Origin: a virus
Taxonomy: Duplodnaviria; Caudoviricetes
DNA length: 64,000 bases
Reading direction: 5' to 3' (one strand)
IMG/VR virus record: IMGVR_UViG_3300031851_000001
Of the stretch, positions 19,166 to 55,864 are shown piece by piece (position 1 is the stretch's first letter; each line of letters begins with the position of its first letter). Under the pieces are notes generated by a model. The model saw only the letters and a program-made list of their open reading frames with translations. It was not told the origin of the DNA and did no database searches. The translations under genes and the position numbers were made by a program.

Positions 19166-19177
19166 TTTTTAATATCC

Positions 19178-19199
19178 TATAAATACATCTATATTTATA
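19178..19199. promoter_or_regulatory. Oppositely oriented T4-type late promoters
   Basis: TATAAATA (+) at 19178-19185 and TATTTATA (-) at 19192-19199. Confidence 0.6.
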
Positions 19200-19207
19200 A
19201 TGAAAGT

Positions 19208-21468: not shown

Positions 21469-22073
21469 AACCAGATAATATAATATTCGTAAAGCATGGT
21501 GATAAGTATACTGCCGAACATGTCAATAGATTAAGAGATCAGCTTAGAGAATATTACCCTAAGGCTCAATACCTGTGTTATACAGAAGATCCGTCTGGCG
21601 TTGAAATCGAAAAAATTCCATGTTTTAAAAAACCAACACTCAGATTTTGGTGGAATAAACTTGCAATGTTTAGTGCAGACTTTCCTGTAGAAGGTAAGTG
21701 TTTATTTTTTGATTTAGATATGGATATTAAAGAAGATCCATCGACATTTTTAAAATGGGACGGATTAACAATACTTAAAGATTATTGGAAAGACGATTTG
21801 TACATGGCCGCGCATGCTTATGATGTTCACATAAATAGTTCTGTGATCACGTGGACTGCTGGAGAACAGACGCACATATGGGATCACTTCTTATCTAACA
21901 AAGATTACTTCATGCGTAAGTATAAAGGTATAGATAGATTTTTAGTCCACGAAGGATTAGAGTTTAATACCTTTGAGCATGGTTTAGTAAACAGTGTCGC
22001 TAATGAATTTAGGAATGCACCAATTGATATGTATAATGGAATGAAATATGAGCTACCTAGAAACAATCTATAA
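21465..22073 (+). CDS. GT-A fold glycosyltransferase-like protein
   Basis: WWNKL, FFDLDMDI (DxD), NSSV. Confidence 0.7.
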   Translation: MKPDNIIFVKHGDKYTAEHVNRLRDQLREYYPKAQYLCYTEDPSGVEIEKIPCFKKPTLRFWWNKLAMFSADFPVEGKCLFFDLDMDIKEDPSTFLKWDGLTILKDYWKDDLYMAAHAYDVHINSSVITWTAGEQTHIWDHFLSNKDYFMRKYKGIDRFLVHEGLEFNTFEHGLVNSVANEFRNAPIDMYNGMKYELPRNNL

Positions 22074-38650: not shown

Positions 38651-38658
38651 TATAAATA
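38651..38658 (+). promoter_or_regulatory. T4-type late promoter
   Basis: TATAAATA. Confidence 0.65.
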
Positions 38659-38687: not shown

Positions 38688-39926
38688 ATGAAGCGTTTTC
38701 AGGAATTTGTCACAGAAGCGAAACGCGGTGGCGCAAAGAAAAACCAAGTAAGTGCCACTGATATGGAAGCGGTTATCGTTGTTGCTTTCAACGGTGGTTG
38801 GGACAAAGCCAAAGATACATACGGTTTAAAACAAAATACATATGAAATTGGCGCTCCAATTGCAGAAAAAATTGCTGATGATATTAGAAAAACAACCAAG
38901 GCTTCTGCGAACTCACTAATACATTTTGGTTCTGGCGCAGGTCAGTTAAATCCAAAATGGTTAGGTTCCAATGGTACTCCTAAAACTGATTTATATTCAA
39001 CAGACGGTATAAACATATCACTTAAACAAAAAGGTGGTTCTCAAGTTATGTCTGGATATAAAGAAGAAACAATTTCTACATTCTATGCAGCGATGGATAG
39101 TATGGGAGATAAAGCTCCTAAAGAAATTAATAAATTAGTAGCACAATTGGATCCTGTTCTCAAAAAGATTACTGTACCCGGAAATGTTAATACAATTATT
39201 AACTCAATCAAAGGTAAATCAATGCCTAAAGGTGTTAAAGCACAAGTAGGTAATAGTAAACGTGTAATGGACATTAAGTTTGATAAAAGAGAATATGCTG
39301 CCAAGCAAGCAGAAATTGTCGACTGGAAAAACTCAATGAAGGAACTCAACCCAGTGTTTAGAGAATTCTTTGAGGACAACCAAGAGTTTAGACGATACTT
39401 TGTATATGAAGCAGCTACTGGTGATTTTAAATTTGCCCCGGATAAATATGCTAACTCAAATTGGATGGTAGAGTTTGACCCTGCGTCTGGTACTAATAAT
39501 AACATTGTCCAACTATCATTAGGCAATAACATACCGGCACCTTTTATTGATAAGCTAGCTAAAAAAGTTCAAGTTAGAATATCTCCAAAAACACCAACAG
39601 GTTCAAAAGTATCTGCGCAAGGTACATCATCAACTGTTGGATCGTTTAGATTAACAGTGGCTGAAAACAAAGGCGGGTTTGATACATTTGAAACAATGAT
39701 GATAAGAGAACAAGCAAAGTTTACTGAGTCATTATTAACTGAAGATGTGTTAACTGAAGCAGGATTGTTTAGTAAACTTAAAACATGGTTATCTAAATTA
39801 TATTACAAAGTAATTAAAAAGATTAAACAAATTGCTAAACTAGGATACGAAGCGTTATTATCGTTTTTCCAATTTGAAGTAAGCAAAGTTGATACAAAAG
39901 GCCTACAACAGTTTGGATTTAAATAA
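38688..39926 (+). CDS. Putative internal head protein with PD-(D/E)xK-like motif
   Basis: N-terminus MKRFQEFVTE; TPKTDL...ISLKQ. Confidence 0.55.
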   Translation: MKRFQEFVTEAKRGGAKKNQVSATDMEAVIVVAFNGGWDKAKDTYGLKQNTYEIGAPIAEKIADDIRKTTKASANSLIHFGSGAGQLNPKWLGSNGTPKTDLYSTDGINISLKQKGGSQVMSGYKEETISTFYAAMDSMGDKAPKEINKLVAQLDPVLKKITVPGNVNTIINSIKGKSMPKGVKAQVGNSKRVMDIKFDKREYAAKQAEIVDWKNSMKELNPVFREFFEDNQEFRRYFVYEAATGDFKFAPDKYANSNWMVEFDPASGTNNNIVQLSLGNNIPAPFIDKLAKKVQVRISPKTPTGSKVSAQGTSSTVGSFRLTVAENKGGFDTFETMMIREQAKFTESLLTEDVLTEAGLFSKLKTWLSKLYYKVIKKIKQIAKLGYEALLSFFQFEVSKVDTKGLQQFGFK

Positions 39927-41156
39927 ATGTTAAGTTTTAAAAATTACCTCGCTGAGGAAAAGAATGTTCATATGGAGCATCTTGAAGACTCGATTTTAAA
40001 CCTTGGTGTTGATGGTACACGTTCTGCTATTAATTTCCTTAGAGCATTAAGAGATATGCTACAAGGTAGTTCAAAATCTAAAGTTAACGTATCAGTTAAA
40101 TGGGACGGAGCACCTGCTATATTTGCGGGCGTTGATCCAAGCGACAAAAAATTCTTTGTTGCTAAAAAGGGTATTTTTAATAAGAACCCTAAAGTATATA
40201 AAACCGCCGCTGATGTCGATGCAGACACCAAAGGCGATTTAGCAGTGAAATTAAAACTAGCCTTGGAAGAGTTTCCTAAACTTGGTATCAAAGGTGTAGT
40301 ACAAGGTGACTTTCTATATGATAAAAAAGATCTCAAGATATTGGACATTAAGGGTGAACCGCATGTTACTTTCCATCCTAATACGATCGTATACGCGGTA
40401 CCTTCGGCATCAGACCTCGGTAAACAAATACTCAAATCCAAAATCGGAGTGGTCTGGCATACGGTATACAGAGGACGTAGCTTTGAAGAAATGTCTGCAA
40501 GTTTTGGAGAGGAGATTGCATCAAGCCTCAAAACAACGAAAACGTGCTGGTCGGTAGACGCGGTATATAGAGACGTTTCAGGCACGGCAACGATGACGGC
40601 TGCAGAGACTGAAAAGGTTAATAAAATATTATCGGCTGCAGGAACTTTATTTCAAAAAATAAAACCAGCAACTCTAAACGGCGTAGCAAACAATCCTGAC
40701 ACGCTAATGCGGACAAAAACATTTGTTAATACTAAAATTAGAGCTGGTGAAAAGATACGTAACACTCGTATGTTTGTAAAAGATTTAGAAAAGTATATTG
40801 ATGATATATACGAAAAAGAAGCTGGCAAACGAAAAACCGATAAAGGTAAAAGAGCACAACGAGTTAAAAAAGATGCTACATTAGAATACTTTAAGAAAAC
40901 ATCAACAAAAGAATTAGTTGCTATGTTTGATTTGTATAACTTGCTCATAGATGCCAAACTTTTAATCATAAAGAAACTCGACAAAGCTGGTGGTTTAACA
41001 ACGTTCCTTAAAACAGCTGACGGGCTTCAAGTAACAGGGCAAGAAGGCTTTGTTGCTATTGACCACATGGGTAAAACCGCAGTTAAGCTTGTTGACAGAC
41101 TTGACTTTAGTAATGCTAATTTTAACGACAAGTATATTAAAGGGTGGGACAAATAA
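39927..41156 (+). CDS. Putative internal head protein with ligase-like KxDG motif
   Basis: N-terminus MLSFKNYLAE; SVKWDGAPA, QGDF, EGFV, KLVDR. Confidence 0.6.
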   Translation: MLSFKNYLAEEKNVHMEHLEDSILNLGVDGTRSAINFLRALRDMLQGSSKSKVNVSVKWDGAPAIFAGVDPSDKKFFVAKKGIFNKNPKVYKTAADVDADTKGDLAVKLKLALEEFPKLGIKGVVQGDFLYDKKDLKILDIKGEPHVTFHPNTIVYAVPSASDLGKQILKSKIGVVWHTVYRGRSFEEMSASFGEEIASSLKTTKTCWSVDAVYRDVSGTATMTAAETEKVNKILSAAGTLFQKIKPATLNGVANNPDTLMRTKTFVNTKIRAGEKIRNTRMFVKDLEKYIDDIYEKEAGKRKTDKGKRAQRVKKDATLEYFKKTSTKELVAMFDLYNLLIDAKLLIIKKLDKAGGLTTFLKTADGLQVTGQEGFVAIDHMGKTAVKLVDRLDFSNANFNDKYIKGWDK

Positions 41157-41491
41157 TGGCATGGGTTGACGTACCAGGATCACCAACAGTTTTAGTGGGT
41201 GGAACACCTACTGCGATTTGGCAATATGATAATGCTCCTGTTTTAGGCACATTGGTAAACGCGAATGCAAAGGTCCAAGACGATCCTAATGTTGGCCCTA
41301 CTGACCAATATTACCGCGCTAACGGAACCGTAACTGCAGGGATTAGATCCTTTACACCAACAGGTGGTCCTATACAAGAAACATATGTAAAATGTAAAAA
41401 GGTTCAACCAACTGGAAAAATTTATACTGATTCCAACACAAACGGTCCTTGGTCTGAATTAAACAAAAACTATTATGACGGAAAAATTTAA
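41144..41491 (+). CDS. Hypothetical protein
   Basis: Gly/Thr/Pro-rich ORF in late operon. Confidence 0.55.
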   Translation: MGQIMAWVDVPGSPTVLVGGTPTAIWQYDNAPVLGTLVNANAKVQDDPNVGPTDQYYRANGTVTAGIRSFTPTGGPIQETYVKCKKVQPTGKIYTDSNTNGPWSELNKNYYDGKI

Positions 41492-41507
41492 GAGGTAGGC
41501 AAGAGCA

Positions 41508-42293
41508 ATGGCTATTTGGAACAAATTAACTCAAGCATATTTACAAGGTAATAAAACTTTATTTGAAGCGTTTATGCTGGCAGATAAAGATGGTAATATC
41601 ATCAATACATTTGGTTCGGCGTCTAATATTCCAATTGCTGCAGGGCAAGTAGAAGGCTATTCACATATTAATAAGTTCGGTCATACAGGTGCCGATATTA
41701 ATGGTACGACTACTATTTGGGATGGTTCAAATGGTGTATATACTTGGCCAACCGCAGCGGGCGTAGTTACAGTTGCTTCTTCATCTCAATCTGGTGAAAC
41801 AGTTGTGGTTGAAGGTCTTGATGTAAATTATAATATCATATCAGAAGAAACAACAATTGGTGGAACAACTACCGCAGAGTTTTATCGTATCTATCGTGCA
41901 TATATGACAGGCGACCAAAATGAGAATGATGTTACCTTCTCAATTGGTGGAACATCATACGCTATTATCCTAGCAGATAACGGTCAAACTTTGATGACGA
42001 CCTATACAGTTCCTGCTGGTAAAACGGCTTACCTAATGCAATTAACTTGCACAATGGATAAAGCAAATGCTCCAACATACTTTAGATTAATGTCACGCCC
42101 AGTTGATAATGGAACTTCGTTTAATATCAAATCACAGCTTGGATCACAAGGTGGTAATCCAGTAAACTTTGAATATGCTGTACCCCTTAGGTTTCCAGAA
42201 AAAACTGACATTAAAGTTGATGTTATTACTCAAGGTGCAGTTGGTGTTGGTGCAACTTACGATCTTATATTAGTGGATAATCCTACTCCATAA
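41508..42293 (+). CDS. Probable virion structural protein
   Basis: Beta-rich; YTVPAGKTAYL and LRFPEKTDI motifs. Confidence 0.55.
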   Translation: MAIWNKLTQAYLQGNKTLFEAFMLADKDGNIINTFGSASNIPIAAGQVEGYSHINKFGHTGADINGTTTIWDGSNGVYTWPTAAGVVTVASSSQSGETVVVEGLDVNYNIISEETTIGGTTTAEFYRIYRAYMTGDQNENDVTFSIGGTSYAIILADNGQTLMTTYTVPAGKTAYLMQLTCTMDKANAPTYFRLMSRPVDNGTSFNIKSQLGSQGGNPVNFEYAVPLRFPEKTDIKVDVITQGAVGVGATYDLILVDNPTP

Positions 42294-42422
42294 CACCTGA
42301 CATAATGTCACATTTGCATATAGTGAATACCGGCTAGTAAAAACTAGCAAGCCTAATTTTACCTTTTTACTAATAAATAAATTTGTTAAAACAAAGAAAC
42401 ATTTATTAGAAAAGGATTAATT

Positions 42423-42698
42423 ATGGCACACACGATTAATAGTAATTCATCTATTGCTTCAGTATTTGCATACAAAGTAGTAACATTCTTCGAAAGAATT
42501 GGCACGGCGATGGCTAAACGAGCAGAGCGTCGCGAAACATTCAAAACACTCCATAGATTAACAGATAGAGAATTAAACGACATTGGCATTAGCCGTGGCG
42601 ATATTCGTTCTATTGCTAATGACACTTGGGAAGATACTCGTAAACGCGATTCATTACCATATGTATCAGTTAACCCAAATTTAAGAGGATCAGTATAA
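42423..42698 (+). CDS. DUF1127 (YjiS-like) small protein
   Basis: RRETFKTLHRLTDRELNDIGISRGDI. Confidence 0.85.
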   Translation: MAHTINSNSSIASVFAYKVVTFFERIGTAMAKRAERRETFKTLHRLTDRELNDIGISRGDIRSIANDTWEDTRKRDSLPYVSVNPNLRGSV

Positions 42699-42886
42699 TG
42701 GAAATCACAGGTGAACAACCAGTAAGAATGCCAAAAATATTTAAACTATTAGCAAAAGGCTTAGTTGCTGTAGGAATGTTCTTATGGGCATTTGGCGAGT
42801 CAGCAGGCAGAGCAAGAGCAGCGAGTGAATTGTTTCGTCAAGGATATGTAGAAGAAGCAAGAAGATTAATGTTGGAGAGTAAATAA
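42698..42886 (+). CDS. Small Rhodobacteraceae-type hypothetical protein
   Basis: [23 protein letters not shown]. Confidence 0.55.
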
Positions 42887-43113
42887 TGACTGGTGATATA
42901 GCAACAATGGGCGCATTAATTGGCGCAGGATTGGCAACTTTAGGAATGGGTGGAGCGGCTATTGCCGTAGGAATTATAGTCGGAAGTGTGTTAAAAGTAA
43001 TGCCTAAAAAGGGTGAAGGCGATCAGGGAACAATGTTTGTAGGTATCGCATTTGCAGAAGCGTTGGGTATCTTTGCATTCTTGGTAGCGTTGCTACTAAT
43101 GTTTGCTGTATAA
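42886..43113 (+). CDS. atpE: ATP synthase F0 subunit c homolog
   Basis: [18 protein letters not shown] glycine helix; [13 protein letters not shown] with conserved Glu; ends LLMFAV as in alphaproteobacterial subunit c. Confidence 0.9.
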
Positions 43114-43334
43114 TGGTTGGTGATCAGCATATAGAAATATCAGCACAGGTAGTGCAGAAGTTAGGTTTTTATATGTTCGTCGTTATGACTTCATTAATAT
43201 TAATATGTATAGCGTTTGGATTTTACGCCGTGATTGACAAATACAAACAACCAAATTGGAAAGAAGTATGTATCGCAAAAGGCGGTGTACCAGTACAGTT
43301 AGAGAAATCATTCTTTGACTGCAAAAAGATGTAA
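43113..43334 (+). CDS. Small single-TM protein
   Basis: Hydrophobic helix, C-terminal C...C. Confidence 0.6.
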   Translation: MVGDQHIEISAQVVQKLGFYMFVVMTSLILICIAFGFYAVIDKYKQPNWKEVCIAKGGVPVQLEKSFFDCKKM

Positions 43335-43349
43335 GAAAGAGGAAACGGA

Positions 43350-43484
43350 ATGTTTAGACGATTTATGAAACTAATGGAATATAGAAGTTACTGCATGAGT
43401 ATTAAGCAGTTGAGAGAGATGGGCATGTATGACAAAGCTAACGAAATCTCAGAGTTCAAACACAACATGTATAAAACAAGTTAG
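43350..43484 (+). CDS. Small hypothetical protein (44 aa)
   Basis: Manual translation MFRRFMKLMEYRSYCMSIKQLREMGMYDKANEISEFKHNMYKTS; SD GAGGA. Confidence 0.55.
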   Translation: MFRRFMKLMEYRSYCMSIKQLREMGMYDKANEISEFKHNMYKTS

Positions 43485-43492
43485 GATATAAT

Positions 43493-43915
43493 ATGAAAAC
43501 ACTTTATTTTTATTTGGCACTATTCGCTGCAATTTTTACAGTGTCAGCAGCATCAGCAGACGTAACAATCGAAATGTTAAATAAGCGCGACGATGGCGCT
43601 AAGATGGTCTACTCACAAGATATTACACGTATCGAAGTAGGTGAGATTATCACATGGGTACCAACATCAAAAGGTCATAACGTAGAATTTATTGCAGGGC
43701 CAGACGGTTGGAAGAAACCAAAGAAATCAAAATTAAATAAAGTAGTTGAAATCCAGTTTAACACACCGGGTGTATATCTATATCAATGTTCACCACATAA
43801 GAGCATGGGTATGATTGCTATTGTAGTTGTAGGTGATGGAGATAATGATATTTCAAAAGCCAAAGTAAAGGGCAAATCAAAGAAAAAGCTTAAGGCTTTG
43901 TTAGGAGAACTATGA
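43493..43915 (+). CDS. paz: Pseudoazurin (type-1 blue copper protein)
   Basis: Signal peptide; KGHNV and YQCSPHKSMGM give His/Cys/His/Met ligands. Confidence 0.9.
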   Translation: MKTLYFYLALFAAIFTVSAASADVTIEMLNKRDDGAKMVYSQDITRIEVGEIITWVPTSKGHNVEFIAGPDGWKKPKKSKLNKVVEIQFNTPGVYLYQCSPHKSMGMIAIVVVGDGDNDISKAKVKGKSKKKLKALLGEL

Positions 43916-44081
43916 TAGATCCAGATCACACATTCATCAAACCTAAAGGTGAAAAGAAAAAAGGCGGCAAGTAATGCACGGTGATAGAGGTAACATTAAA
44001 ATTGTTTGGTTAATGTTATTCTTGTGCGTATTCTTACACGTTGGATTAATACCAGTTTGGATGTGGTATTTAGGTTTATAA
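43912..44081 (+). CDS. Two coupled micro-ORFs (43912-43974, 20 aa; 43974-44081, 35-aa TM peptide)
   Basis: MIDPDHTFIKPKGEKKKGGK and MHGDRGNIKIVWLMLFLCVFLHVGLIPVWMWYLGL; ATGA and TAATG overlaps. Confidence 0.5.
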
Positions 44082-44097
44082 TAACTTCAAAAAAACT

Positions 44098-44136
44098 TAT
44101 AAATAAAGGGTAGGCATTAAGTTGTCTACCTTTTTT
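44098..44136 (+). terminator. Late promoter followed by terminator-like hairpin
   Basis: TATAAATA at 44098; GGTAGGCA-TTAAGT-TGTCTACC-TTTTTT. Confidence 0.6.
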
Positions 44137-44719
44137 GATTCAACGGAGATATACTATGGGAAGAATACGTGATAGAGGTAATGACGGCGGAAACGTCTAT
44201 AGGTGGCAAACATTAGCCAACTTTGTTAACACTAATGGCTGGACAAAAGGCGCAGAGCTTGGTATCCACGATGGTGTTAATTTTAAATTTCTAATTAACA
44301 ATTGTCCAAAACTACACATGATTGGTGTGGATTTGTATGAAGCGCAGCCAGATAATAATGGACCAGAAAAATGGACACCCGGAGAACATGGGCACGCTTG
44401 GGATCATAATAGATACTATAACGATTTAAGAGAGTTTGAAGAATATAATCCAGACAGAGTTGATATTATAAAAGACTATACTACTGAAGCTGCTAAAACA
44501 GTTGACGATAAAAGTTTAGATTTTGTTTTTGTTGATGCTGACCACGGATACGAAGGTTGCCTAAGAGATATTAAAGCTTGGGATAGTAAAGTAAGAGATG
44601 GTGGTATTATGTTTGGACATGATATACATTTCCCTACTGTCAAACAGGCAGTAACAGAGTTTTATGGAGAGAACTCTTGGCACGTAGAAGACGATTTTAT
44701 TTGGTGGGTACAGAAGTGA
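44135..44719 (+). CDS. Class I SAM methyltransferase (Methyltransf_24-like)
   Basis: GAELGI, VDLY, FVFVDADH, GGIMFGHD. Confidence 0.8.
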   Translation: MIQRRYTMGRIRDRGNDGGNVYRWQTLANFVNTNGWTKGAELGIHDGVNFKFLINNCPKLHMIGVDLYEAQPDNNGPEKWTPGEHGHAWDHNRYYNDLREFEEYNPDRVDIIKDYTTEAAKTVDDKSLDFVFVDADHGYEGCLRDIKAWDSKVRDGGIMFGHDIHFPTVKQAVTEFYGENSWHVEDDFIWWVQK

Positions 44720-45366
44720 ACATTCCAAAAAGACTAAGCCAAATATGGGTTGGACCACGCCCTGCTCCACTCCAATGGCTTCACACTTGGAGAGACAAAC
44801 ATCCTGAGTGGGAATACTCTATATTTACTGATGAAATGTTACGATCGCGTAAATGGCATAATAGTCATTTGATTGAACACTATTATAACACAGGTAAATT
44901 CCCAGGAGTATCCGATCTTATCCGATACGAACTGCTATACGAACATGGTGGATTTTGGCCTGAGGCTGATATGACTTGTTTAGAAAATACTGATGAGTTA
45001 TTTACATCACCAGAGAATTACGCTTATTCTTGTTACGAAAATGAAAAACTACCAACACCAAACATTCAACCTATTATGGCATGTAATCCTGAGAATGTAT
45101 TCGTCAAACATGTTATTAATACACTCCATAAATTAAAACCAACTGATTTAAGCCCAGAGCCATTTAGATCCACGGGTAATCTATTTCTATCTAAACACCA
45201 CCCAAATTTTAAACATATGATAACTATATGGCCAAGTCATTATTTTATTCCGTTGTTTTATATTGGTGGCGCAAAAAGATATAATGGACCAGATAAAGTT
45301 TATGCAGACCATAAATGGGGATCTACTGGACATGCAAATAGTATAACATATGATAAGGGTATATAA
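44716..45366 (+). CDS. GT32-like (DxD) glycosyltransferase
   Basis: IPKRLSQIWVG, SDLIRYELLYEHGGFW.EAD; GTG start 44716. Confidence 0.75.
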   Translation: MNIPKRLSQIWVGPRPAPLQWLHTWRDKHPEWEYSIFTDEMLRSRKWHNSHLIEHYYNTGKFPGVSDLIRYELLYEHGGFWPEADMTCLENTDELFTSPENYAYSCYENEKLPTPNIQPIMACNPENVFVKHVINTLHKLKPTDLSPEPFRSTGNLFLSKHHPNFKHMITIWPSHYFIPLFYIGGAKRYNGPDKVYADHKWGSTGHANSITYDKGI

Positions 45367-46037
45367 TGTACATATCTCACAAATATAAATTAATATTTTT
45401 ACGAACACCAAAAACTGCGAGCAGCAGCTTATCTGAGTTCTTTATTAAAAACATTCCTGATCCTAACGCAATTTATACACCGGTTGAAGATTCTAATATA
45501 CCAGCCACGTTAAGCCAAGATATAATTAATAAGTATAAATTAAACTTTAAATATTATCATTTTACATTACAGGATTTAGTTGAAAATCGTATTATAACTC
45601 CAATGGCTGCTATTGAATATAAATCTATTGCGGTCGTAAGAGATCCTGTTGATAGACAAAAAAGCTTTTACTATTTCTATAAGAGGTGGACTAATAATCA
45701 TATACCGCCGTCAATAGAAGAATATAATTCTTGGACACCAAAAGGTCCTTTTATTGGCGAACCAAACTCTGGTATATTACAATCCGATATATTAAAATAT
45801 AATAACGAAATACACGGTGAGTATTGGCTATACGAAAACATAAGCAACGACTTAAGTGCTCTTATGCGCGAATTAAATATACAAGTAAAGCATATGTTAC
45901 CTAACCATAAAAACGATTTTAGAAAAAACCGAAATAACGAAATAACTTTTGATAATAGAGCGATGGATGTTATGTTAGAATACTTTGCAAACGATATAAC
46001 TTTATATAACGAACTTGCTGAGGAAACATACGTATGA
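45366..46037 (+). CDS. Sulfotransferase family 2 protein
   Basis: FLRTPKTASSS 5'-PSB loop, VVRDPVDR..S. Confidence 0.8.
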   Translation: MYISHKYKLIFLRTPKTASSSLSEFFIKNIPDPNAIYTPVEDSNIPATLSQDIINKYKLNFKYYHFTLQDLVENRIITPMAAIEYKSIAVVRDPVDRQKSFYYFYKRWTNNHIPPSIEEYNSWTPKGPFIGEPNSGILQSDILKYNNEIHGEYWLYENISNDLSALMRELNIQVKHMLPNHKNDFRKNRNNEITFDNRAMDVMLEYFANDITLYNELAEETYV

Positions 46038-46723
46038 AGGCGTATATTTTAAAAATTGATAATAAGTTATCGCACGATTATGCAAAAGTTGCTGCTGACT
46101 CTTGTGATAAGATTGGTTTACCTTGGACATATCATTTAGGATATAGTAATCAGTCAGGTAAAGCAGCATTTAAAGATTTAGGTATACCTAGATTACCAAC
46201 TGAAAATTATGAATATATTGCGGAACCAACTAATGGTCAAAAAGCAATGTGTTGTACCGCTGGTCATTTTGCTATATGGAAAAGGATTGCTGAAGGTACT
46301 GACAATATAGGGATTGTACTTGAACACGATGCAATAATGCTCCAACGCCCTTGCAAATTTATAACTATACCAGAAAATACTATTGTTGTGTTAGGATATA
46401 AAATATCAGATCCAGAAAATTATAAACATGAAGAGGCTGGTCCACCAACTGATTTGATACCAATTATTGGTCATGAAGGAGCTCATGCATACGCTATGAC
46501 TAGACGAACTGCACAGTTTTTAATTAACGAAATATCCCAAAAAGGTATAAGAAGCGCAGTTGATAATGATTACTTTATTCGTGGTCAGCGTAGAACAGCC
46601 ATGCCATTACACATAGCCTCGCCAACTCCTGCACTTGGATGGATTAGGGAGTCGACTATTTGGGCAAAATCGGCTTCTAATAACTATGAATTCATACCCT
46701 CTTTTCAAAAATATTATAAATAG
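46034..46723 (+). CDS. GT25-like glycosyltransferase
   Basis: CCTAGHFAIW, VLEHDA, HAYAMT, AVD. Confidence 0.7.
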   Translation: MKAYILKIDNKLSHDYAKVAADSCDKIGLPWTYHLGYSNQSGKAAFKDLGIPRLPTENYEYIAEPTNGQKAMCCTAGHFAIWKRIAEGTDNIGIVLEHDAIMLQRPCKFITIPENTIVVLGYKISDPENYKHEEAGPPTDLIPIIGHEGAHAYAMTRRTAQFLINEISQKGIRSAVDNDYFIRGQRRTAMPLHIASPTPALGWIRESTIWAKSASNNYEFIPSFQKYYK

Positions 46724-46754
46724 AATTAAATCTAATATACTAGGATCTACAATT

Positions 46755-49106
46755 ATGGTTGACGAACCGCAAGACATTAATGACCCGAAGAATAACGATG
46801 AAGACGAAGTCAAACCTAAGCCAAAGGCGAAGGATAAAGATGGCAAGCGAAAACTTCAAAGCTTTAAAGGATTTGATGCAAACAAATATGTTGATGTTGA
46901 ACCAACATTAGCTGAGGCAGCTGGCGACGATAAACCAGCAGTCGTAACATTTGGCAGAATGAATCCAATTACAGTAGGTCATGAAAAATTAGCAGCCGCT
47001 GTTATTTCAAACGCGAAGCAACGTGGTGGTACCCCTTATATTTACCTTTCGCAATCACAAGATAAAAACAAAAATCCATTAAGTTATAATGATAAAATCA
47101 AATACGCGCAAAAGGCGTTTGGGCCAGCAGTCATTAAATCAAAAGCTCGTACTATCATTGAAGTGATGGTTGAGTTAAGTGGCAAACATAAAGATGTTAT
47201 AGTAGTTGTTGGTTCTGACAGGGTAAAAGAATTTGATAGACTATTAAACAAATATAATAAATCCTCTGCTGGCTATGTATTCAATAATATAAAAGTTGTA
47301 TCAGCAGGCCAACGCGATCCTGATGCCGAAGGCGTTAAAGGAATGTCTGGAACTAAAATGCGTGGCTACGCCGCGGATAACGATGTTAAGAAATTCGCAA
47401 CCGGATTACCAAGTAAACTAAAAACAAGCGCAGCCGCGATATTAGCCGACGTGCGAAAGGGAATGAACATGTCAGAAGATAACGATAACGAATTTGAAAA
47501 CATTGAGGAAATTGTAGAAGATACACAAGATCTCGATGAAGTATTAGACCGTATGCAGCGCCGAGCTATTGGTATTAGAATGCGTAAAAACAGACATAAA
47601 ATGAAACGTGGTAGAGAAAAAGCGGCTCGACGAACTGCAACTATGGAAGTACTTAAGAAACGTGCTCGCAAACAGGCAATCATAAATCTTAAAAACCGTT
47701 TTGCAAAAAATAAACGATATGCTGATATGTCGTCTGGTGAAAAGATTGTAATTGATAAGCGTGTTGCTAAATTCTCTAAACAAAGATTAGATGCAATGGC
47801 GCGTAAGTTATTACCAAAAGTTAAAATTAAAGAACGCGATCGTAAAAGAGCTAAGAATAAAAATGAAAATTTGGATATGAATACGCAGTTCCAAAACTTT
47901 ATGACAGAAAAAACTGGACCATATTATAAAGGTGTAGCTCAGGATAAAAAAGACGATCGTGAAGATCACTTTGAGCGTAATGCCAAAAAGGCTGATAACG
48001 ATGCCTCTGCATATAAGCCGGCTCCCGGAGATAAAGAAGCAAAGACTAAAGAGTCAAAGCATACTAAAAAAGCTCGTGCAATGGGTTATACTGAAGAGTT
48101 GGAAGAAAGCCATATCTGGGGACAACGTCAAGGTAAACGCCCTCATATGCTTTTAGACAAAAATGGCAAGACAAAGTTTGATAAGCGTTTCAAAATGTAT
48201 AAGCCAAAACTTCAAGAAAACGTTGATGAGTTTAACATTGAAGATATTACAGATTTAATGGAATCAACAGAGTCATATATTAAAGAAGATGCTGCTGATA
48301 AATCTTTGGCTAAAAAAGCTGACAAATCTGGTATGCCACAAGGTGTTTTAAAACAAGTATATAACCGTGGTGTAGCTGCGTGGAAAACTGGTCATAGACC
48401 GGGAACTACACCAGAACAATGGGGACATGCTCGAGTAAACTCTTTTATTACTAAATCTTCTGGTACATGGGGCAAAGCTGATAAAGACTTGGCTGCTAAA
48501 GTACGTAAAGAAGAAGTAGAACTTGAAGAAACATATAAGATTACTAAAGTATATAATCCAACTACGAAAAAATCTCGTGCAGCTGGAAAAAGTACAGCAA
48601 CGTTTGCGGTACATACACATGATCGTAAATACTTTAAAGAGTTTCCAAATCAAAAAGATGCTGAAAACCATATGAAATCTCTCGGTAAAAAAGAAGAAAC
48701 CAACCTCGACGAAATGGATTTTTCTATTAAATCAGTAAAGAAATCTGGTTTAGCCAATGTTAAAAAGGCAAATAACTTTGATAAATTAAAAGCTGATATT
48801 GCTAAAATGAGAAAAAATCTCAATAAAGGTAAACCACTTCAAGCTGAAGCAGAAATTAATGAGTTAGATAAAGATACGCTTGCTAACTATGCCAATAAGG
48901 CTATTAAAGATAAAGAGCAAGCTCAATATAACAAAAGCCGTGCTCAAAATTCTAGAGCAGCTAATGTTGTTCGTGGTAACTCAGACGGCATCAAAAAAGA
49001 TGTTAAAGATATTGACAAAGCTGATGCGAGAATTAAACGTCGCGAACGTGGCGCAGCAAACTTCACTCGTAAAATATTAAAGGGTGATAAGGAAAACGAA
49101 GAATGA
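46755..49106 (+). CDS. Cytidylyltransferase-like (HxGH) nucleotidyltransferase fused to multiple small modules
   Basis: TFGRMNPITVGH, VVGSDR, SAGQRDPDAEG...MSGTKMR; late promoter at 46715; start moved to 46755. Confidence 0.75.
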   Translation: MVDEPQDINDPKNNDEDEVKPKPKAKDKDGKRKLQSFKGFDANKYVDVEPTLAEAAGDDKPAVVTFGRMNPITVGHEKLAAAVISNAKQRGGTPYIYLSQSQDKNKNPLSYNDKIKYAQKAFGPAVIKSKARTIIEVMVELSGKHKDVIVVVGSDRVKEFDRLLNKYNKSSAGYVFNNIKVVSAGQRDPDAEGVKGMSGTKMRGYAADNDVKKFATGLPSKLKTSAAAILADVRKGMNMSEDNDNEFENIEEIVEDTQDLDEVLDRMQRRAIGIRMRKNRHKMKRGREKAARRTATMEVLKKRARKQAIINLKNRFAKNKRYADMSSGEKIVIDKRVAKFSKQRLDAMARKLLPKVKIKERDRKRAKNKNENLDMNTQFQNFMTEKTGPYYKGVAQDKKDDREDHFERNAKKADNDASAYKPAPGDKEAKTKESKHTKKARAMGYTEELEESHIWGQRQGKRPHMLLDKNGKTKFDKRFKMYKPKLQENVDEFNIEDITDLMESTESYIKEDAADKSLAKKADKSGMPQGVLKQVYNRGVAAWKTGHRPGTTPEQWGHARVNSFITKSSGTWGKADKDLAAKVRKEEVELEETYKITKVYNPTTKKSRAAGKSTATFAVHTHDRKYFKEFPNQKDAENHMKSLGKKEETNLDEMDFSIKSVKKSGLANVKKANNFDKLKADIAKMRKNLNKGKPLQAEAEINELDKDTLANYANKAIKDKEQAQYNKSRAQNSRAANVVRGNSDGIKKDVKDIDKADARIKRRERGAANFTRKILKGDKENEE

Positions 49107-49678
49107 AAAAATTTAAACAACACGTTCAATCAAAAGCTGGTGCCGGTGATATTGGTACTGATGAATTAGTCAAAACTCTTAAGTCTGATACTCCAATGGA
49201 AGAAGCTTGTTGGAGTACTCACAAACAAGTTGGTATGAAGAAAAAAGGGGACAAGATGGTTCCTAACTGTGTACCTAAAAATGAAGATGCTGAATACGAT
49301 AACGAAGGTGGCATGTCAAAAAATCAATTAAAGACTATGATTGATGCTGCACAAGAGTTACATAGTATGCTTGACGACGACGAGAATATGCCTGAGTGGG
49401 TACAATCAAAAATTACAAAAGCAACTGATTACATTGATACTGTTAGAGATTATATGAAATCAAACGATGTAAGTGAAGGTTCTGAAACTTGGGAAGCTGG
49501 TTATAAACGTCGTGTAGTTAAAACAACTAGTCCTGAACATAAAGAGGCTGGTCACAAATGGCGCATCAAAGGTAAAGATAAAGCAAACCTTTCTATTAAA
49601 TTATATAAAGAAAAACCATCTCAACAAGAGTTTAATAAGCAAATGAAAAGAGTTGCTGGCCACGAGTTTGGCGGTTAA
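49103..49678 (+). CDS. Putative internal head protein, modular
   Basis: MKKFKQHV; CW...MVPNCVP and MPEWVQSKIT modules. Confidence 0.6.
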   Translation: MKKFKQHVQSKAGAGDIGTDELVKTLKSDTPMEEACWSTHKQVGMKKKGDKMVPNCVPKNEDAEYDNEGGMSKNQLKTMIDAAQELHSMLDDDENMPEWVQSKITKATDYIDTVRDYMKSNDVSEGSETWEAGYKRRVVKTTSPEHKEAGHKWRIKGKDKANLSIKLYKEKPSQQEFNKQMKRVAGHEFGG

Positions 49679-49679
49679 T

Positions 49680-50126
49680 GTGTTACGGTTTAAACAATAT
49701 ATGACTGAATATACTGTTAAGTCAATGGCAAAATACCATGAAATAACAGGCACAGAATTTATTAAGCCTAAGGTTAAATTATTAAAGTTACCAACAAAAA
49801 ACGTAACTGATAATGATTTAATATATGCTCATTTAATGTATGGTCACCTAGAAAGCTATCAGTATGCGGAACTTGCATTTCCGGGTTCTACCAGAAAGAC
49901 TAATGCGTGGTTTAGTAAATATTCTAAAATGGCTAAAGTATATGGCGAAGAAAACGACGCAGGCGACCATTTATCTGTTATGAGAAAAGCTGCTGAAATG
50001 ACTAGTGAACGTAGTAAAAACTTTAAATTAAATGGTAGAGAATGGAAATCTAGTAAACAAGGTAAAGCTTGGAATGCATGGGAAACTGAGCAAAGAAAAA
50101 TTTATCCGGAGCAATGGAATGATTAG
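49680..50126 (+). CDS. Putative internal head protein
   Basis: GTG start, (M)LRFKQYMTE. Confidence 0.6.
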   Translation: MLRFKQYMTEYTVKSMAKYHEITGTEFIKPKVKLLKLPTKNVTDNDLIYAHLMYGHLESYQYAELAFPGSTRKTNAWFSKYSKMAKVYGEENDAGDHLSVMRKAAEMTSERSKNFKLNGREWKSSKQGKAWNAWETEQRKIYPEQWND

Positions 50127-50883
50127 GTTTAAACGTTATATAACAGAAAGTGCTAACTCTTCGCACGATCACCATCATACAAGTTCTAGTAAAATTGATA
50201 CTGATAAGCACAATGCAGGTAAGGGTAAAAACCCAGAGCATCCTATGTGGTTATCTCATAATGCTCACCAAGCTGCGGGTTGGCATAAAAATCATGAACA
50301 AGAAAATGGTTCAGCGCATACCTATAAGGTAAAAGTAAAGAACGTTGCTCATCATACAGACCCAAAGGTTAAAGCCTTATTTAAAAAGCATGGTCATAGT
50401 ATGAAAGATTATCACTCTGAGCTTGTTAGCAATCCAAGCCATAAAGAAGTACATAACCACCCAGCAACAAAAATGCTCAAGAAGGCTGGTTATCATGGGC
50501 ATACTCACTCAGATTATCATTCACATGACTTTTCTAAGGACCATGACTCAACTGTAGTATTTCACAGAAAACATGCGACAATGCACGACGCAAATAAAGA
50601 ACCAGCTCATAAGCATGCTGATACTAAACACACCGTTGGAAATCATAGTGTTACACATAAAACTCATCAGGAATATATGGACGGAAGTCACCGACCACTA
50701 GACCATGGTGGTACAGAGTCTAGGCTATCAACATCACACGATCATGCCAAAACTCTTAAAGCAAAACTTAAAGGTACTGGTAATAAAATTAATATAACTA
50801 AAAATAAATCTGGATCTAGGATAAAGGTTACGCATTCTGATAGTGCTGCTCGAGACACGTTCCATAAACACTTAAAAGGGTGA
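50119..50883 (+). CDS. His-rich putative internal head protein, possible ADP-ribosyltransferase-like fold
   Basis: MIRFKRYITE; about 40 His; MWLS...A..W...G...YKV...LKKAGYHG...STVVF. Confidence 0.55.
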   Translation: MIRFKRYITESANSSHDHHHTSSSKIDTDKHNAGKGKNPEHPMWLSHNAHQAAGWHKNHEQENGSAHTYKVKVKNVAHHTDPKVKALFKKHGHSMKDYHSELVSNPSHKEVHNHPATKMLKKAGYHGHTHSDYHSHDFSKDHDSTVVFHRKHATMHDANKEPAHKHADTKHTVGNHSVTHKTHQEYMDGSHRPLDHGGTESRLSTSHDHAKTLKAKLKGTGNKINITKNKSGSRIKVTHSDSAARDTFHKHLKG

Positions 50884-50887
50884 AAGT

Positions 50888-51244
50888 ATGAAAAGTTTTA
50901 AGGTGCATTTAAACGAGGCGGTAGATAGACCACCTAGATGGAAAAAAGATACTTCTATGGGAGAGGGCGGCGCTCAAACTATTGAATTTCCAAAGACTAA
51001 GGGTAAGTACAGAGTTTCAAAGTTCCTTGATCATAATGAACGCCATAAAGGTGAATGGAATTTAGAAGTTTGGGACCCTCGGCGTAGAGAGTTCGTATGG
51101 TCTGAGACTCTTGCTCCAAAGGCTTGGGTAAAAGAACTTTGCATATACAGAGGTCAGTTCAAACACGATGCGCGTGGGGATTTTGATAAAAAACAACAAG
51201 TAGCAGATTATAGTAAAACATTTAAATTTGACGGGCATTACTAA
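50888..51244 (+). CDS. Putative internal head protein
   Basis: MKSFKVHLNE. Confidence 0.6.
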   Translation: MKSFKVHLNEAVDRPPRWKKDTSMGEGGAQTIEFPKTKGKYRVSKFLDHNERHKGEWNLEVWDPRRREFVWSETLAPKAWVKELCIYRGQFKHDARGDFDKKQQVADYSKTFKFDGHY

Positions 51245-51801
51245 TGAAAAGATTTAAAGAATTCACATCACACGATCTTAATGAAAGCGCCCTAACGGCA
51301 CTTAGGGTCGCGACAAAGGCCCATTCTGGTCAAACACGTAAAAGCGGCGGTCAATATATTGAACATCCAAAAGAAGTTGCGCGATTTGTAAAAAAGTTTA
51401 AAAAATCTAATAACCTTTCTGCATTAGTACAAGCGGCGTACTTGCACGATACTATTGAAGATACTGATACTACATATGCAGATTTAGTTAAACAGTTTGG
51501 TGCTCTCGTGGCTGACATGGTTAAAGAATTAACTACTGACAAAGCTGCATCTGATGCTATCGGTAAAGGCGAGTACATTGCTAATAAAATGGCTAAGATG
51601 TCAAGTTGGTCTTTAGTTATTAAACTTGCTGATAGATTAGCAAACGTACAGGATATTGATACACGACCAGCAGCTTTCCAGAAAAAATATGCTGCAGACA
51701 CTACATTAGCAATAAAACGTTTAAGATCTGATAGATATTTAAGTAAGACTCACAATAAAATCATTTCAGCTATCGAAAAGAAAATTAAGGAATACGTATA
51801 A
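51244..51801 (+). CDS. HD-domain (p)ppGpp hydrolase-like protein (SpoT/Mesh1 type)
   Basis: AHSGQTRKSG..YIEHP, LHDTIED, IKLADRLAN. Confidence 0.88.
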   Translation: MKRFKEFTSHDLNESALTALRVATKAHSGQTRKSGGQYIEHPKEVARFVKKFKKSNNLSALVQAAYLHDTIEDTDTTYADLVKQFGALVADMVKELTTDKAASDAIGKGEYIANKMAKMSSWSLVIKLADRLANVQDIDTRPAAFQKKYAADTTLAIKRLRSDRYLSKTHNKIISAIEKKIKEYV

Positions 51802-52445
51802 TGAAAAGTTTTAAAACACATATTAGTGAATTATATACTATCGGACATACGAGATCCTATGATGCTGTCGCCAATCGAGCAAAGCAAAATGTAAAACATG
51901 GTTCAACTGATCCAAAGGATAAAAGATTTGGTACTAAACTTGGTGGTCAAAAAGGTGAGCATGGAGGTGCAGCGTATAAAACTCCGGAAGATGCTACAAA
52001 AGGTGCTAAGGCGTTAAAGAAAGAGTTTCCGGGCAGAAAATACAGTGTATATAAAATGAAAGGTGATTTTGATAAAGACACTTATCATAGCAATAAAACT
52101 GGTATGAACCATGTAAAAAAAGATACTGAAATTACTCATAAAGTAGCTCATAATGTATCAGAAGAAAAAGATCCACGTTTAGCTCGAGCTGGCGTAAAAG
52201 GTTTTAACAAAGCCAAAGGTACTCCCTCGCATCCTACTAAAAGTCATATTGTTGTTGCTAAAGACGGCGACAAAATAAAGACTATTCGTTTTGGTGAGCA
52301 AGGTGCTTCGACTGCAGGCGATCCTAAAAAGGGTGAGTCTGATAAAATGAAAGCGAAACGTAAATCATTTAAGGCACGCCACGGTAAAAACATTGCTAAA
52401 GGCAAAATGTCAGCTGCATACTGGGCTGACAAGGTCAAATGGTAA
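51801..52445 (+). CDS. Putative internal head protein, two modules
   Basis: MKSFKTHISE; C-terminal TIRFG...RKSFKARH...SAAYWA module. Confidence 0.6.
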   Translation: MKSFKTHISELYTIGHTRSYDAVANRAKQNVKHGSTDPKDKRFGTKLGGQKGEHGGAAYKTPEDATKGAKALKKEFPGRKYSVYKMKGDFDKDTYHSNKTGMNHVKKDTEITHKVAHNVSEEKDPRLARAGVKGFNKAKGTPSHPTKSHIVVAKDGDKIKTIRFGEQGASTAGDPKKGESDKMKAKRKSFKARHGKNIAKGKMSAAYWADKVKW

Positions 52446-52451
52446 TTATTT

Positions 52452-52459
52452 TATAAATA
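52452..52459 (+). promoter_or_regulatory. T4-type late promoter
   Basis: TATAAATA. Confidence 0.65.
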
Positions 52460-52487
52460 GACAGTAATATATCTAAAGGAAATCACA

Positions 52488-53147
52488 ATGAAACGGTTTA
52501 AGACACATTTTAACGAAGCTAAAGACACACATTGTTCAGACAAGTGTTGTGGCGCTGATGTAAAAGCAGAAGATTGTGATTGCCCTGCTGATTGCGCTCA
52601 CTGTAATTGTAATGCCAAGAATGAAGCGTTTGACCCTAAACATCCAAAGGTTGTAGCTGCTCGTAAAGCTGTTAAAAACGGTACTTATAATGGTAATATG
52701 GATACGAATGGTAATGCTATTGTACACATTGATGGTAAACCTCATACAGTAACTAAAGGCGATCCTGCTGCAAAGAATGAAGCAACTAACGAAGACATTA
52801 TTGCTATTATTAACGAACATAATATTACTCTAGAACAATTAGAGAATATGACCGAAGAAGAACTTAACGAATTACTAGGAAAAGCAATTGGTGGCGTGGC
52901 TAAGGTTATTGGTGGGGTTGCCAAAGGCGCCGGAAGATTGGCGGGCGCAGGTATTAAACGAGCAGTAATGACAAAGCAAGGTAGTATTCGTGGTACTAAG
53001 GCTGCAAAACAAGATAAAGCAGGCGATAGAGCAGAAAAAATGGCTAGAGAAAGAGAAAAAGAATTCAAGCGCAAAAAGCGGATTTCTGACATGAAGCAAA
53101 GAGCTAGTGACTTGGATCAAAAAATCTCTGACTTAAATAATAAATAA
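52488..53147 (+). CDS. Putative internal head protein with Cys-rich module
   Basis: MKRFKTHFNE; HCSDKCCG...DCDCPADCAHCNC. Confidence 0.6.
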   Translation: MKRFKTHFNEAKDTHCSDKCCGADVKAEDCDCPADCAHCNCNAKNEAFDPKHPKVVAARKAVKNGTYNGNMDTNGNAIVHIDGKPHTVTKGDPAAKNEATNEDIIAIINEHNITLEQLENMTEEELNELLGKAIGGVAKVIGGVAKGAGRLAGAGIKRAVMTKQGSIRGTKAAKQDKAGDRAEKMAREREKEFKRKKRISDMKQRASDLDQKISDLNNK

Positions 53148-53184
53148 ATACAACTATAACTAAACCTCATTAAGGAGAACTACA

Positions 53185-55495: not shown

Positions 55496-55864
55496 ATGTC
55501 TTTAGAAAAAATTATCAAAGAAGCGTTGGATAAAAATCCATTGGAAATGAAAGACGCATTCGCAGAAGAAATGGCAACACGTATTGCCGCTGCTTTAGAA
55601 GAAAAATATAAATCAGCTTTAAAAGAAGATTTAGAAGAAGCAAAAGACGACGATGATGAAGACGAAGATGATGATGATGACGATGACGACGACGACGATT
55701 CTGACGACGACGATGACTCGGACGACGACGCTAAAATCGGCGCTGACATGAAAAAATTAAATGCATCTTGCACAAAAACAGAAATGTATGGTAAGATGAA
55801 AGAAAAGTATGGCTGTTCAAAAGGAAAATTTGAAGGTCTATACGCATCATATTGCTCAAAGTAA
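55496..55864 (+). CDS. Acidic prohead-core-like protein with poly-Asp tract
   Basis: DAFAEEMATRIAAALE helix plus D-rich run, reminiscent of T4 gp67. Confidence 0.5.
   Translation: MSLEKIIKEALDKNPLEMKDAFAEEMATRIAAALEEKYKSALKEDLEEAKDDDDEDEDDDDDDDDDDDSDDDDDSDDDAKIGADMKKLNASCTKTEMYGKMKEKYGCSKGKFEGLYASYCSK

Follow-up and report, generated by a model that had tools for sequence, protein, structure and literature searches.

What would lead nine otherwise unrelated genes of one phage to open with variants of the same ten-residue peptide? The question is raised by a 64,000-nucleotide stretch of DNA (IMG/VR record IMGVR_UViG_3300031851_000001; "the window" below means this whole stretch), whose source is an uncultured marine T4-like myophage with a sequence known from metagenomes only. 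Downstream of the genes for UvsX (36034; genes are named here by their start position) and the gp41 helicase (37212), nine plus-strand open reading frames (ORFs) start with M-x-x-F-K/Q-x-(F/Y/H)-(hydrophobic)-x-E, seven of them in canonical form and two with variant leaders. An earlier note, written from the sequence alone, had likened these N-termini to the capsid targeting sequence (CTS) of the T4 internal proteins. All nine that it listed lie on the plus strand between 38688 and 53147 (Table 1), with the nuance that of the two variants one is a 14-residue leader and the other opens a probable 34-residue propeptide. Taking the sequence analysis and the published work together, we consider it likely that the nine ORFs encode packaged, protease-processed proteins whose leader is the counterpart of the CTS, and we lean slightly toward the further view that the nine proteins are injected effectors. 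Cleavage after the Glu, injection and anti-defense roles are what we infer for this phage.

The shared leader

The T4 capsid targeting sequence of internal proteins was reportedly treated by Mullaney and Black in 1996, and for T4 both the CTS and protein delivery by means of it are established. The T4 internal proteins IPII and IPIII (NC_000866) start MKTYQEFIAEA. The first 10 residues of IPIII suffice for incorporation into the T4 head; suppressor analysis assigned targeting mainly to residues 4 and 7 and processing to residues 8 and 10, and Asp at position 10 blocked processing, not targeting (PMC9026906). In the nine leaders of the window F4, K/Q5 and F/Y/H7 are present throughout, a hydrophobic residue at position 8 in eight and E10 in seven, and positions 2, 3, 6, 9 and 11 vary freely. 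The residues corresponding to the targeting pair are therefore found in every member and a predicted gp21 processing site, (V/L/M/I/F)-x-E at residues 8-10, in seven. One of the nine bodies, the DUF6267 protein (39927), has more than 8000 metagenomic homologues; among 114 homologues, leader positions 4, 7, 8 and 10 are conserved at 98-100% (F/Y at 4 in 112, F/Y/H at 7 in 112) and the other positions drift. The comparison with T4 made in the earlier note thus holds up, as the IPII and IPIII leaders and the positions mapped in T4 match the positions conserved here. No other single observation argues as strongly for a genuine CTS counterpart as this match of the constrained positions.

A strict peptide pattern applied to start codons matched eight tagged ORF starts and no other in the six frames of the window, and the DNA pattern ATG-N6-TTY-MAR-N12-GAR occurred at 6 sites against 0.35 expected, a count reached in 0 of 100 shuffles. 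The position-specific scoring matrix (PSSM) on which we rely took its training leaders solely from DUF6267 homologues of other origin that had been found by body similarity. The matrix that gave the window scores also included seven window leaders in its training set, so that the top window scores are partly circular (15.8-30 bits for seven starts, best of 20 shuffles 7.0); the variant leaders of 51244 and 49103 scored 6.6 and -4.6 bits. The external-only matrix gave the same picture in relatives. A motif scan, which the earlier note had proposed as a check, was run on all six frames of the window, where the tag came up only at the beginning of coding-strand ORFs, and on a related 194.6-kb genome (see below). 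Arg and Ser codons differ between copies of the leader, so conservation appears to be at the peptide level; mean nucleotide identity of the leaders is 60%, and the 25 nt upstream of the tagged starts are dissimilar to each other. As had been claimed, the bodies are otherwise unrelated, aligning in BLASTP only over their first 10-13 residues. The genes also stand in late-promoter units: the T4-type late promoter sequence TATAAATA is found about 28-33 nt before starts 38688, 46755 and 52488, so the nine genes fall into three predicted late units, and the window holds 18 such sites where 10.5 would be expected. The same arrangement of late promoter and tagged gene recurs in relatives.

Further signals that are independent of the motif point in the same direction. 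The predicted mature forms of the nine proteins are all basic (pI 8.4-10.1), which is true of 18% of the 66 other ORFs (median pI 5.8). In 29 representative tagged bodies the internal gp21 motif (L/I)xE is depleted, with an observed/expected ratio of 0.73 against 1.27 in neighboring genes (Poisson P 5e-4), and five of the window's nine tagged proteins have no internal site of this kind; such depletion would fit bodies that meet the protease. The leader forms a low-confidence, disordered tail outside the fold in each of the two AlphaFold models.

The two variant leaders suggest displaced cleavage sites, at L-N-E (residues 12-14) in 51244 and at a candidate M-E-E (residues 32-34) in 49103. The HD domain of 51244 begins at about residue 17, right behind MKRFKEFTSHDLNE, and a homologue in a related locus (L019) has a canonical leader followed by DTLNE (MKTFKKYIAE↓DTLNE↓S). 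In 49103 a conserved ACW motif follows PMEE at residue 34 (PMEE↓ACW), and in its homologue on the 194.6-kb contig (G001) ACW comes straight after the leader (MISFKQYLEE↓KACW). A longer propeptide is therefore likely in 49103, which probably carries one of 34 residues.

The leader in relatives, and tagged proteins in virions

A protease of the gp21 family (Peptidase_S77, E 1e-36 to 1e-40) is encoded on four of five large IMG/VR contigs that carry DUF6267. One of these four is the complete 194.6-kb genome, which has terminal repeats and, on its forward strand, eight copies of the leader pattern (0 for the control). Its tag clusters are syntenic with those of the window (after gp41, and between the cytidylyltransferase gene and an MGSW.K... 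gene); flanking genes are 52-73% identical and most tagged bodies differ. Across 79 related loci (1.06 Mb) we counted 134 tagged ORFs, all on the coding strand and falling into 24 unrelated body clusters, one of which (body cluster 3) holds homologues of 52488 with the same leader. Most of the relatives' tagged bodies are without a Pfam family; a Pfam search with 20 further ones gave only a weak HAD phosphatase match and DUF6321.

The tag is kept over long distances on one body and is gained and lost on another. Members of the 38688 family at 25-50% identity retain it in 45 of 150 representatives, against 0 in reversed controls. Closer homologues of 38688 (~70% identity) start MLSFKTKQL(D/E)E and have an insert of about 60-200 residues and a second ...YI(T/S)E site abutting the conserved body, an arrangement that would be expected if the N-terminal half targets and the hydrophobic-x-Glu is cut. 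The contigs that carry these extended homologues are also T4-like (UvsX, gp41). In loci L008-L015 the extensions between leader and body hold recurring small modules, such as APPGM..LVKGFKADGMDDD.AFALAW.IYNKK, which may be separate propeptide or cargo modules freed by the second cleavage site. On DUF6267 the tag is present in this phage and in Stenotrophomonas phage DLP_6 (MMKFTQFLAE) but missing in P-SSM4 and S-SM1, and a protein tagged MISFKRFLNE in the 194.6-kb genome has an untagged homologue in DLP_6; judged from these sequences, one and the same body acquires and sheds the tag from phage to phage. With 24 unrelated body clusters, retention at 25-50% identity and the same body seen with and without the tag, describing the set as modular, as the earlier note did, is borne out.

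Natural populations appear to exchange cassettes at the leader. At 52159 one RNA-library contig joins a different upstream sequence encoding another leader, MKKFKQF (ATG AAA AAG TTT AAA CAG TTT), and another such contig skips 385 bases inside the 52488 gene (52773-53159). The RNA-library contigs that span the region come from four studies and, as contigs, tell neither transcript starts nor whether RNA or DNA was their origin.

Among complete genomes the pattern picks out ipII, ipIII and gp61.1 in T4, four ORFs in the Kyanoviridae phage C48C1, and one strict match in P-SSM4, where others were seen by eye. C48C1 is the closest record in the phage collection (UvsX identity 65%); a 41-kb stretch around its uvsX has no tagged ORF, its four lying further along the genome. 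No match came from searching 50,697 phage records for DNA nearly identical to the region. T4 gene 61.1 (NC_000866 18966-19130; L123:467-631) encodes a 54-residue hypothetical protein that starts MKTFKEFIKE. By sequence, this leader is nearer to the marine leader than is that of IPII and IPIII, and gp61.1 may be a CTS-bearing protein that has gone unrecognized.

Indirect support for packaging comes from cyanophages. The "cytidylyltransferase" T4-GC190 was detected by mass spectrometry (MS) in purified S-SM1 virions and flagged as structural (Sullivan 2010, PMC3037559), and its S-SM1 gene (NC_015282) starts MKKFSAFLNE↓AERS (MKKFSAFLKE in the P-SSM4 orthologue). The DUF6267 homologue T4-GC71 was not flagged as structural (PMC3037559); it is untagged in both S-SM1 and P-SSM4. 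In S-CREM2 the gp154 cytidylyltransferase and gp136 are both in the virion proteome (PMC10665884), and within a 42-kb stretch of that phage the only leader-like starts are those of gp154 (MKNFSSFLTE↓AD, 13.9 bits) and gp136 (MQTFSMFFSE↓D, 3.6 bits). Small as this sample is, the detection of the tagged orthologous cytidylyltransferases of S-SM1 and S-CREM2 bears directly on the refuting condition that the earlier note had named, absence from purified virions; for the phage of the window we infer packaging.

Likely cargo and neighboring genes

The predicted cargo goes beyond the small DNA-binding proteins of T4, for it comprises endonuclease-like, ligase-like and alarmone hydrolase folds, with a possible nucleotidyltransferase polyprotein adjoining (Table 1). 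As several tagged bodies are enzyme-like, the phage probably injects a ready-made kit of enzymes with its DNA.

Table 1. Tagged ORFs, the gene opening unit 2 and the late promoters of the window; arrows mark predicted cuts
Feature	Coordinates	Strand	Length (aa)	Leader	Remarks
Late promoter TATAAATA, unit 1	38651..38658	+			29 nt before ATG 38688
Tagged protein 1	38688..39926	+	412	MKRFQEFVTE↓A	MspI/HinP1I-like PD-(D/E)xK fold, then C-terminal helical hairpin (model)
Tagged protein 2	39927..41156	+	409	MLSFKNYLAE↓E	DUF6267, Pfam PF19782, E 1e-112
Late promoter TATAAATA, unit 2	46715..46722	+			32 nt before ATG 46755
Cytidylyltransferase-like + DUF5824	46755..49106	+	783	no N-terminal tag	opens unit 2
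Tagged protein 3	49103..49678	+	191	MKKFKQHV...	targeting half of tag only
Tagged protein 4	49680..50126	+	148	(M)LRFKQYMTE↓Y	GTG start, PSSM 23.7 bits
Tagged protein 5	50119..50883	+	254	MIRFKRYITE↓S	body 17% His, basic
Tagged protein 6	50888..51244	+	118	MKSFKVHLNE↓A	leader motif and PSSM
Tagged protein 7	51244..51801	+	185	MKRFKEFTSHDLNE↓S (14 residues)	MESH1/SpoT-type small alarmone hydrolase (HD_4)
Tagged protein 8	51801..52445	+	214	MKSFKTHISE↓L	Lys-rich, pI 10.1; C-terminal half matches phrog_7595
Late promoter TATAAATA, unit 3	52452..52459	+			28 nt before ATG 52488
Tagged protein 9	52488..53147	+	219	MKRFKTHFNE↓A	Cys-rich N-terminal part, then Lys-rich helical tail

The body of 51244 matches Pfam HD_4 (PF13328) above the cut-off and over the full domain length (E 3e-16), and its PDB matches are human HDDC3/MESH1 (E 5e-15), 3nr1, 5vxa and RelA/SpoT hydrolase domains (E 5e-15 to 1e-10). 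On this sequence evidence the body is classed as a small alarmone hydrolase of the MESH1/SpoT type. For 38688 the AlphaFold 2 model (pLDDT 87.6, residues 1-17 disordered) matches MspI (Z 9.9 over 207 aligned residues, rmsd 4.9), HinP1I (Z 9.3) and HhaI (Z 6.4) with a clear gap to unrelated entries, and Foldseek matches it to MspI with E 2.8e-3 and probability 0.99. E27 (helix 23-34), D101 (strand 102-104) and S111-x-K113 (strand 109-114) do not vary among 38 homologues, the most distant at 23% identity, and the modeled fold makes 38688 a probable nuclease of the MspI/HinP1I structural family. The DUF6267 protein has the invariant residues K58-x-D60-G61, Q126-G-D128, E373-G374-x-V376 and K387, and the top non-helical structural matches of its model are all RNA or DNA ligases; a Foldseek search of it against the PDB gave no significant match. 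It is probably a ligase-like covalent nucleotidyltransferase, an assignment from the model that is not settled. Sequence searches of the PDB returned no match for 38688, DUF6267, the cytidylyltransferase part, 50119, 51801 or 52488, and the ESM Atlas gave viral hypothetical clusters only, plus one weak restriction-enzyme lead. No recognizable family was found for five of the nine tagged proteins. With regard to gene starts, the GTG of 49680 is 2 nt past the upstream stop, and the start at 50119 is an ATG within a longer ORF, overlapping the end of the upstream gene by 8 nt.

Relatives carry other enzymes behind the leader. In two of them (L013:6515-7201 and L015:8931-9602) a late promoter is followed by a tagged Zeta-toxin/AAA_33 P-loop kinase (MQSLKGYLSE↓G... 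and MQSFKIFIYE↓G...), and in a third (L057:5608-6210) the tag heads a phosphatase of HAD type (FDIDETLF). When the ligase-like DUF6267 is added, these resemble a kinase-phosphatase-ligase repair set in which every member bears the tag.

The gene at 46755-49106 is a fusion of two genes that are adjacent in cyanophages, and its orthologues in S-SM1, P-SSM4 and S-CREM2 begin with the tag. Its sequence contains the segment LQSFKGF...TLAE↓A and, at 47877, an internal MNTQFQNFMTE↓K that looks like a leader. The head protease may process this product as a polyprotein. A hidden start at 46854 (MQSFKGF) was considered and rejected, CTT not being a start codon. The PHROG family phrog_455 (764 positions) corresponds in its first half to DUF6267 and in its second to the cytidylyltransferase region (39927-41156 and 46755-49106 in the window); since it spans both, some phages fuse them, which suggests a functional link between the two cargo enzymes.

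Several neighbors were also recorded. A 261-aa protein of the first late unit (41508-42293) resembles by eye, in its N-terminal part (…NTFGSASNIPIAAGQVEGYS…), the virion-detected gp176 of S-CREM2 (…NTYGSAANIPIADGTVPGYT…). Between the two tagged clusters, amid small membrane proteins and glycosyltransferase- or sulfotransferase-like genes, lies a gene for a 140-aa exported protein (43493-43915) that has a C-x2-H-x4-M end motif and resembles a plastocyanin/pseudoazurin-type copper protein. Just 3' of a lysozyme-like gene (54609) is one for a 122-aa protein with a run of about 35 Asp/Glu (55496-55864). Extra ORFs behind TATAAATA break up the uvsX and gp41 regions of the 194.6-kb genome (L037; G001 18076-21747); they have the look of HNH- or intein-type insertions and are absent from the window. 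PADLOC gave no meaningful result.

Proposed route, alternatives and known systems

A plausible course of events can be set out as follows. Tagged genes would be transcribed late from TATAAATA promoters, and the first ~10 residues of their products, with the aromatic residues 4 and 7 as key contacts, would dock on the scaffolding core during prohead assembly. A gp21-type protease (Peptidase_S77) would then cut behind the Glu of hydrophobic-x-Glu at residues 8-10, the cut being displaced to residues 12-14 and ~32-34 in two members, and the basic mature proteins would be kept in the head with the DNA and ejected with it at infection. Enzyme cargo could in this way act in the host ahead of any phage gene expression: (i) endonuclease-like cargo might attack host DNA, the phage's own being spared if cytosine-modified; (ii) ligase-like cargo might serve nucleic-acid repair, alongside the tagged kinase and HAD phosphatase of relatives; and (iii) the alarmone hydrolase might clear the alarmones behind the stringent response or behind defenses based on toxic alarmone synthetases. 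More tentatively, and with somewhat less than even confidence, we suggest that in marine T4-like phages, including cyanophages and this abundant clade, one universal 10-residue tag serves to load the capsid with enzymes, a large set whose members are exchanged rapidly. At the same level of confidence, that set would take in alarmone hydrolases, HAD phosphatases and P-loop kinases besides nucleases resembling restriction endonucleases, nucleotidyltransferases resembling ligases, and families by the dozen that are as yet without an assignment.

A number of observations weigh against this interpretation. A gp21-type prohead protease gene was not found in the 64-kb window by tblastn with gp21 of four relatives as queries, and the evidence for the protease therefore comes only from relatives at ~60-65% protein identity. 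Two of the nine leaders (51244 and 49103) have no Glu at position 10, and at positions 4-5 the leader has F-K in place of the Y-Q of T4. The MS support consists of three tagged proteins in two cyanophages and is silent on cleavage, and 46755, the sole family with such support elsewhere, is without an N-terminal tag here. The (L/I)xE depletion is not significant in the window's nine alone (9 observed against 11.3 expected), and the depletion in the larger set could come in part from differences in secondary structure. Finally, the ligase matches of DUF6267 have middling Z scores of 5.4-6.9, below 8.

It is conceivable that the tag does address the proteins to the prohead and that they act only in the particle, as core or scaffold accessories or in condensing DNA, their enzyme folds being inactive or irrelevant. 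All nine are basic, like DNA-bound internal proteins, five have no recognizable family, and we know of no enzymatic role for IPII or IPIII of T4. We nevertheless regard a role confined to the particle as unlikely, given that candidate catalytic residues are invariant in distant homologues (E27/D101/K113 in 38688, KxDG and EGxV in DUF6267), that the HD hydrolase of 51244 matches MESH1/SpoT across the whole domain, that relatives tag a P-loop kinase and a HAD phosphatase, and that the substrates of such enzymes are in the cell and not in the capsid.

Constraint on residues 4, 7, 8 and 10, in particular on Glu10 and the aromatic residue at 7, is what a translation effect leaves unexplained, and it bears on a quite different account in which the shared N-terminus is a by-product, either of cassette exchange (a recombination joint that includes the ribosome-binding region) or of an A-rich translation-initiation region. 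There is something to be said for this: the region varies greatly from relative to relative, cassettes are exchanged at the leader among strain variants (the contig that joins at 52159 with another leader), codons 2-5 are A/T-rich, and repeated regulatory elements thought to promote exchange flank the IP loci of T-even phages (PMC2839356). A joint of this kind is, however, hard to square with leaders that share only 60% of their nucleotides on average and differ in their Arg and Ser codons, or with upstream 25-nt segments that are not alike, and both versions leave it unexplained that the proteins are basic, that (L/I)xE is depleted and that tagged orthologues show up by MS; we hold this account to be improbable. 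Least probable is that the leader is a signal for export, membrane insertion or degradation. It is short, N-terminal and common to unrelated proteins, as such a signal might be, yet it is amphipathic and charged, with no hydrophobic core and no signal-peptidase site, exported proteins of the same window (e.g., 11577 and 12107) have classical hydrophobic signals, and the leader matches the T4 CTS at functionally mapped positions.

If the proteins are indeed packaged and injected by means of a CTS counterpart, several consequences follow. Proteins that enter with phage DNA precede phage gene expression and are prime candidates for counter-defense, and they are normally found only through virion proteomics of cultured phages; an injected first-strike proteome could instead be read straight from genome sequence. 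Should the tag be valid across marine T4-like phages, it would provide a catalog of candidate injected proteins for uncultured, ecologically dominant viruses, with at least 24 body families in ~1 Mb of related contigs, most of them without a known family. It would also explain the recurrent "non-structural" enzymes, such as cytidylyltransferase, in cyanophage virion proteomes. Endonuclease-like cargo would be safe to co-package provided that the phage DNA is cytosine-modified, and ligase, kinase and phosphatase cargo would equip the phage in advance to repair nucleic acids attacked by host nucleases. For the T4 protein-delivery platform, natural variants of the leader are on offer.

Precedents exist for head-packaged proteins that are delivered with DNA. 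T4 Alt is an ADP-ribosyltransferase that is packaged in the T4-type head, delivered with the DNA and active at time zero. Alt is processed by gp21 (PMC9026906); it differs from the proteins described here in having no 10-residue CTS and in being cut at both ends, and no ADP-ribosyltransferase was identified among the cargo of the window. The ejection proteins of phiKZ and SPN3US and the Dar proteins of P1 (PMC5694885, PMC7411985, PMC9024508) are similar in that many proteins are packaged in the head, propeptides are cut by a prohead protease and cargo includes anti-restriction functions, but cleavage motifs, targeting determinants and capsid lineages are others, and there is no common 10-residue tag. 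A further known case is the virion-associated cytidylyltransferase of T4-like cyanophages (T4-GC190; PMC3037559, PMC10665884), which is orthologous to the 46755 family, syntenic (uvsX-gp41-...-DUF6267-cytidylyltransferase), tagged and virion-detected. The papers concerned drew no link between its presence in virions and its N-terminal tag, and the orthologue in the window differs in being fused to its downstream neighbor and lacking the N-terminal tag. In a literature search that had most subscription journals outside its reach, no paper turned up that connects the CTS with T4-like phages of the sea or of cyanobacteria, nor any in which the CTS was invoked to explain their virion-associated enzymes.

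Close known systems also occur in the T-even phages. In T4-type coliphages the IP loci vary strongly, with over 30 variants described (PMC2839356, citing Repoila 1994 and Comeau 2007), and these resemble the present loci in being clustered cassettes in which the leader is kept and bodies are replaced between relatives, with a presumed defensive or adaptive role after injection. They are from enterobacterial relatives of T4; here the late clusters follow gp41 and the cytidylyltransferase gene. With IPI, IPII and IPIII of T4 (PMC9026906, PMC3012670) the nine proteins have in common the 10-residue leader M-K-x-(Y/F)-(Q/K)-x-F-(I/V/L)-x-E, with aromatic residues at 4 and 7 and hydrophobic-x-Glu at 8-10, as well as predicted late expression, basic cargo, unrelated bodies and a gp21-type protease in the lineage. 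T4 has three such proteins, of 8-20 kDa and non-enzymatic; here there are nine, of up to 44 kDa, with enzyme folds and known from genes, some of them with what appear to be longer propeptides or two cleavage sites. The earlier note's expectation of a set larger than that of T4 (ipII and ipIII, plus ipI) is thus in agreement with the gene count. Since the CTS and variable IP loci are established in T-even phages, we view these loci as an extension of a known mechanism and not as a new one, and what is new relative to the T-even phages is the wider, marine lineage, the greater number of members, the large enzyme cargo and the extended propeptides.

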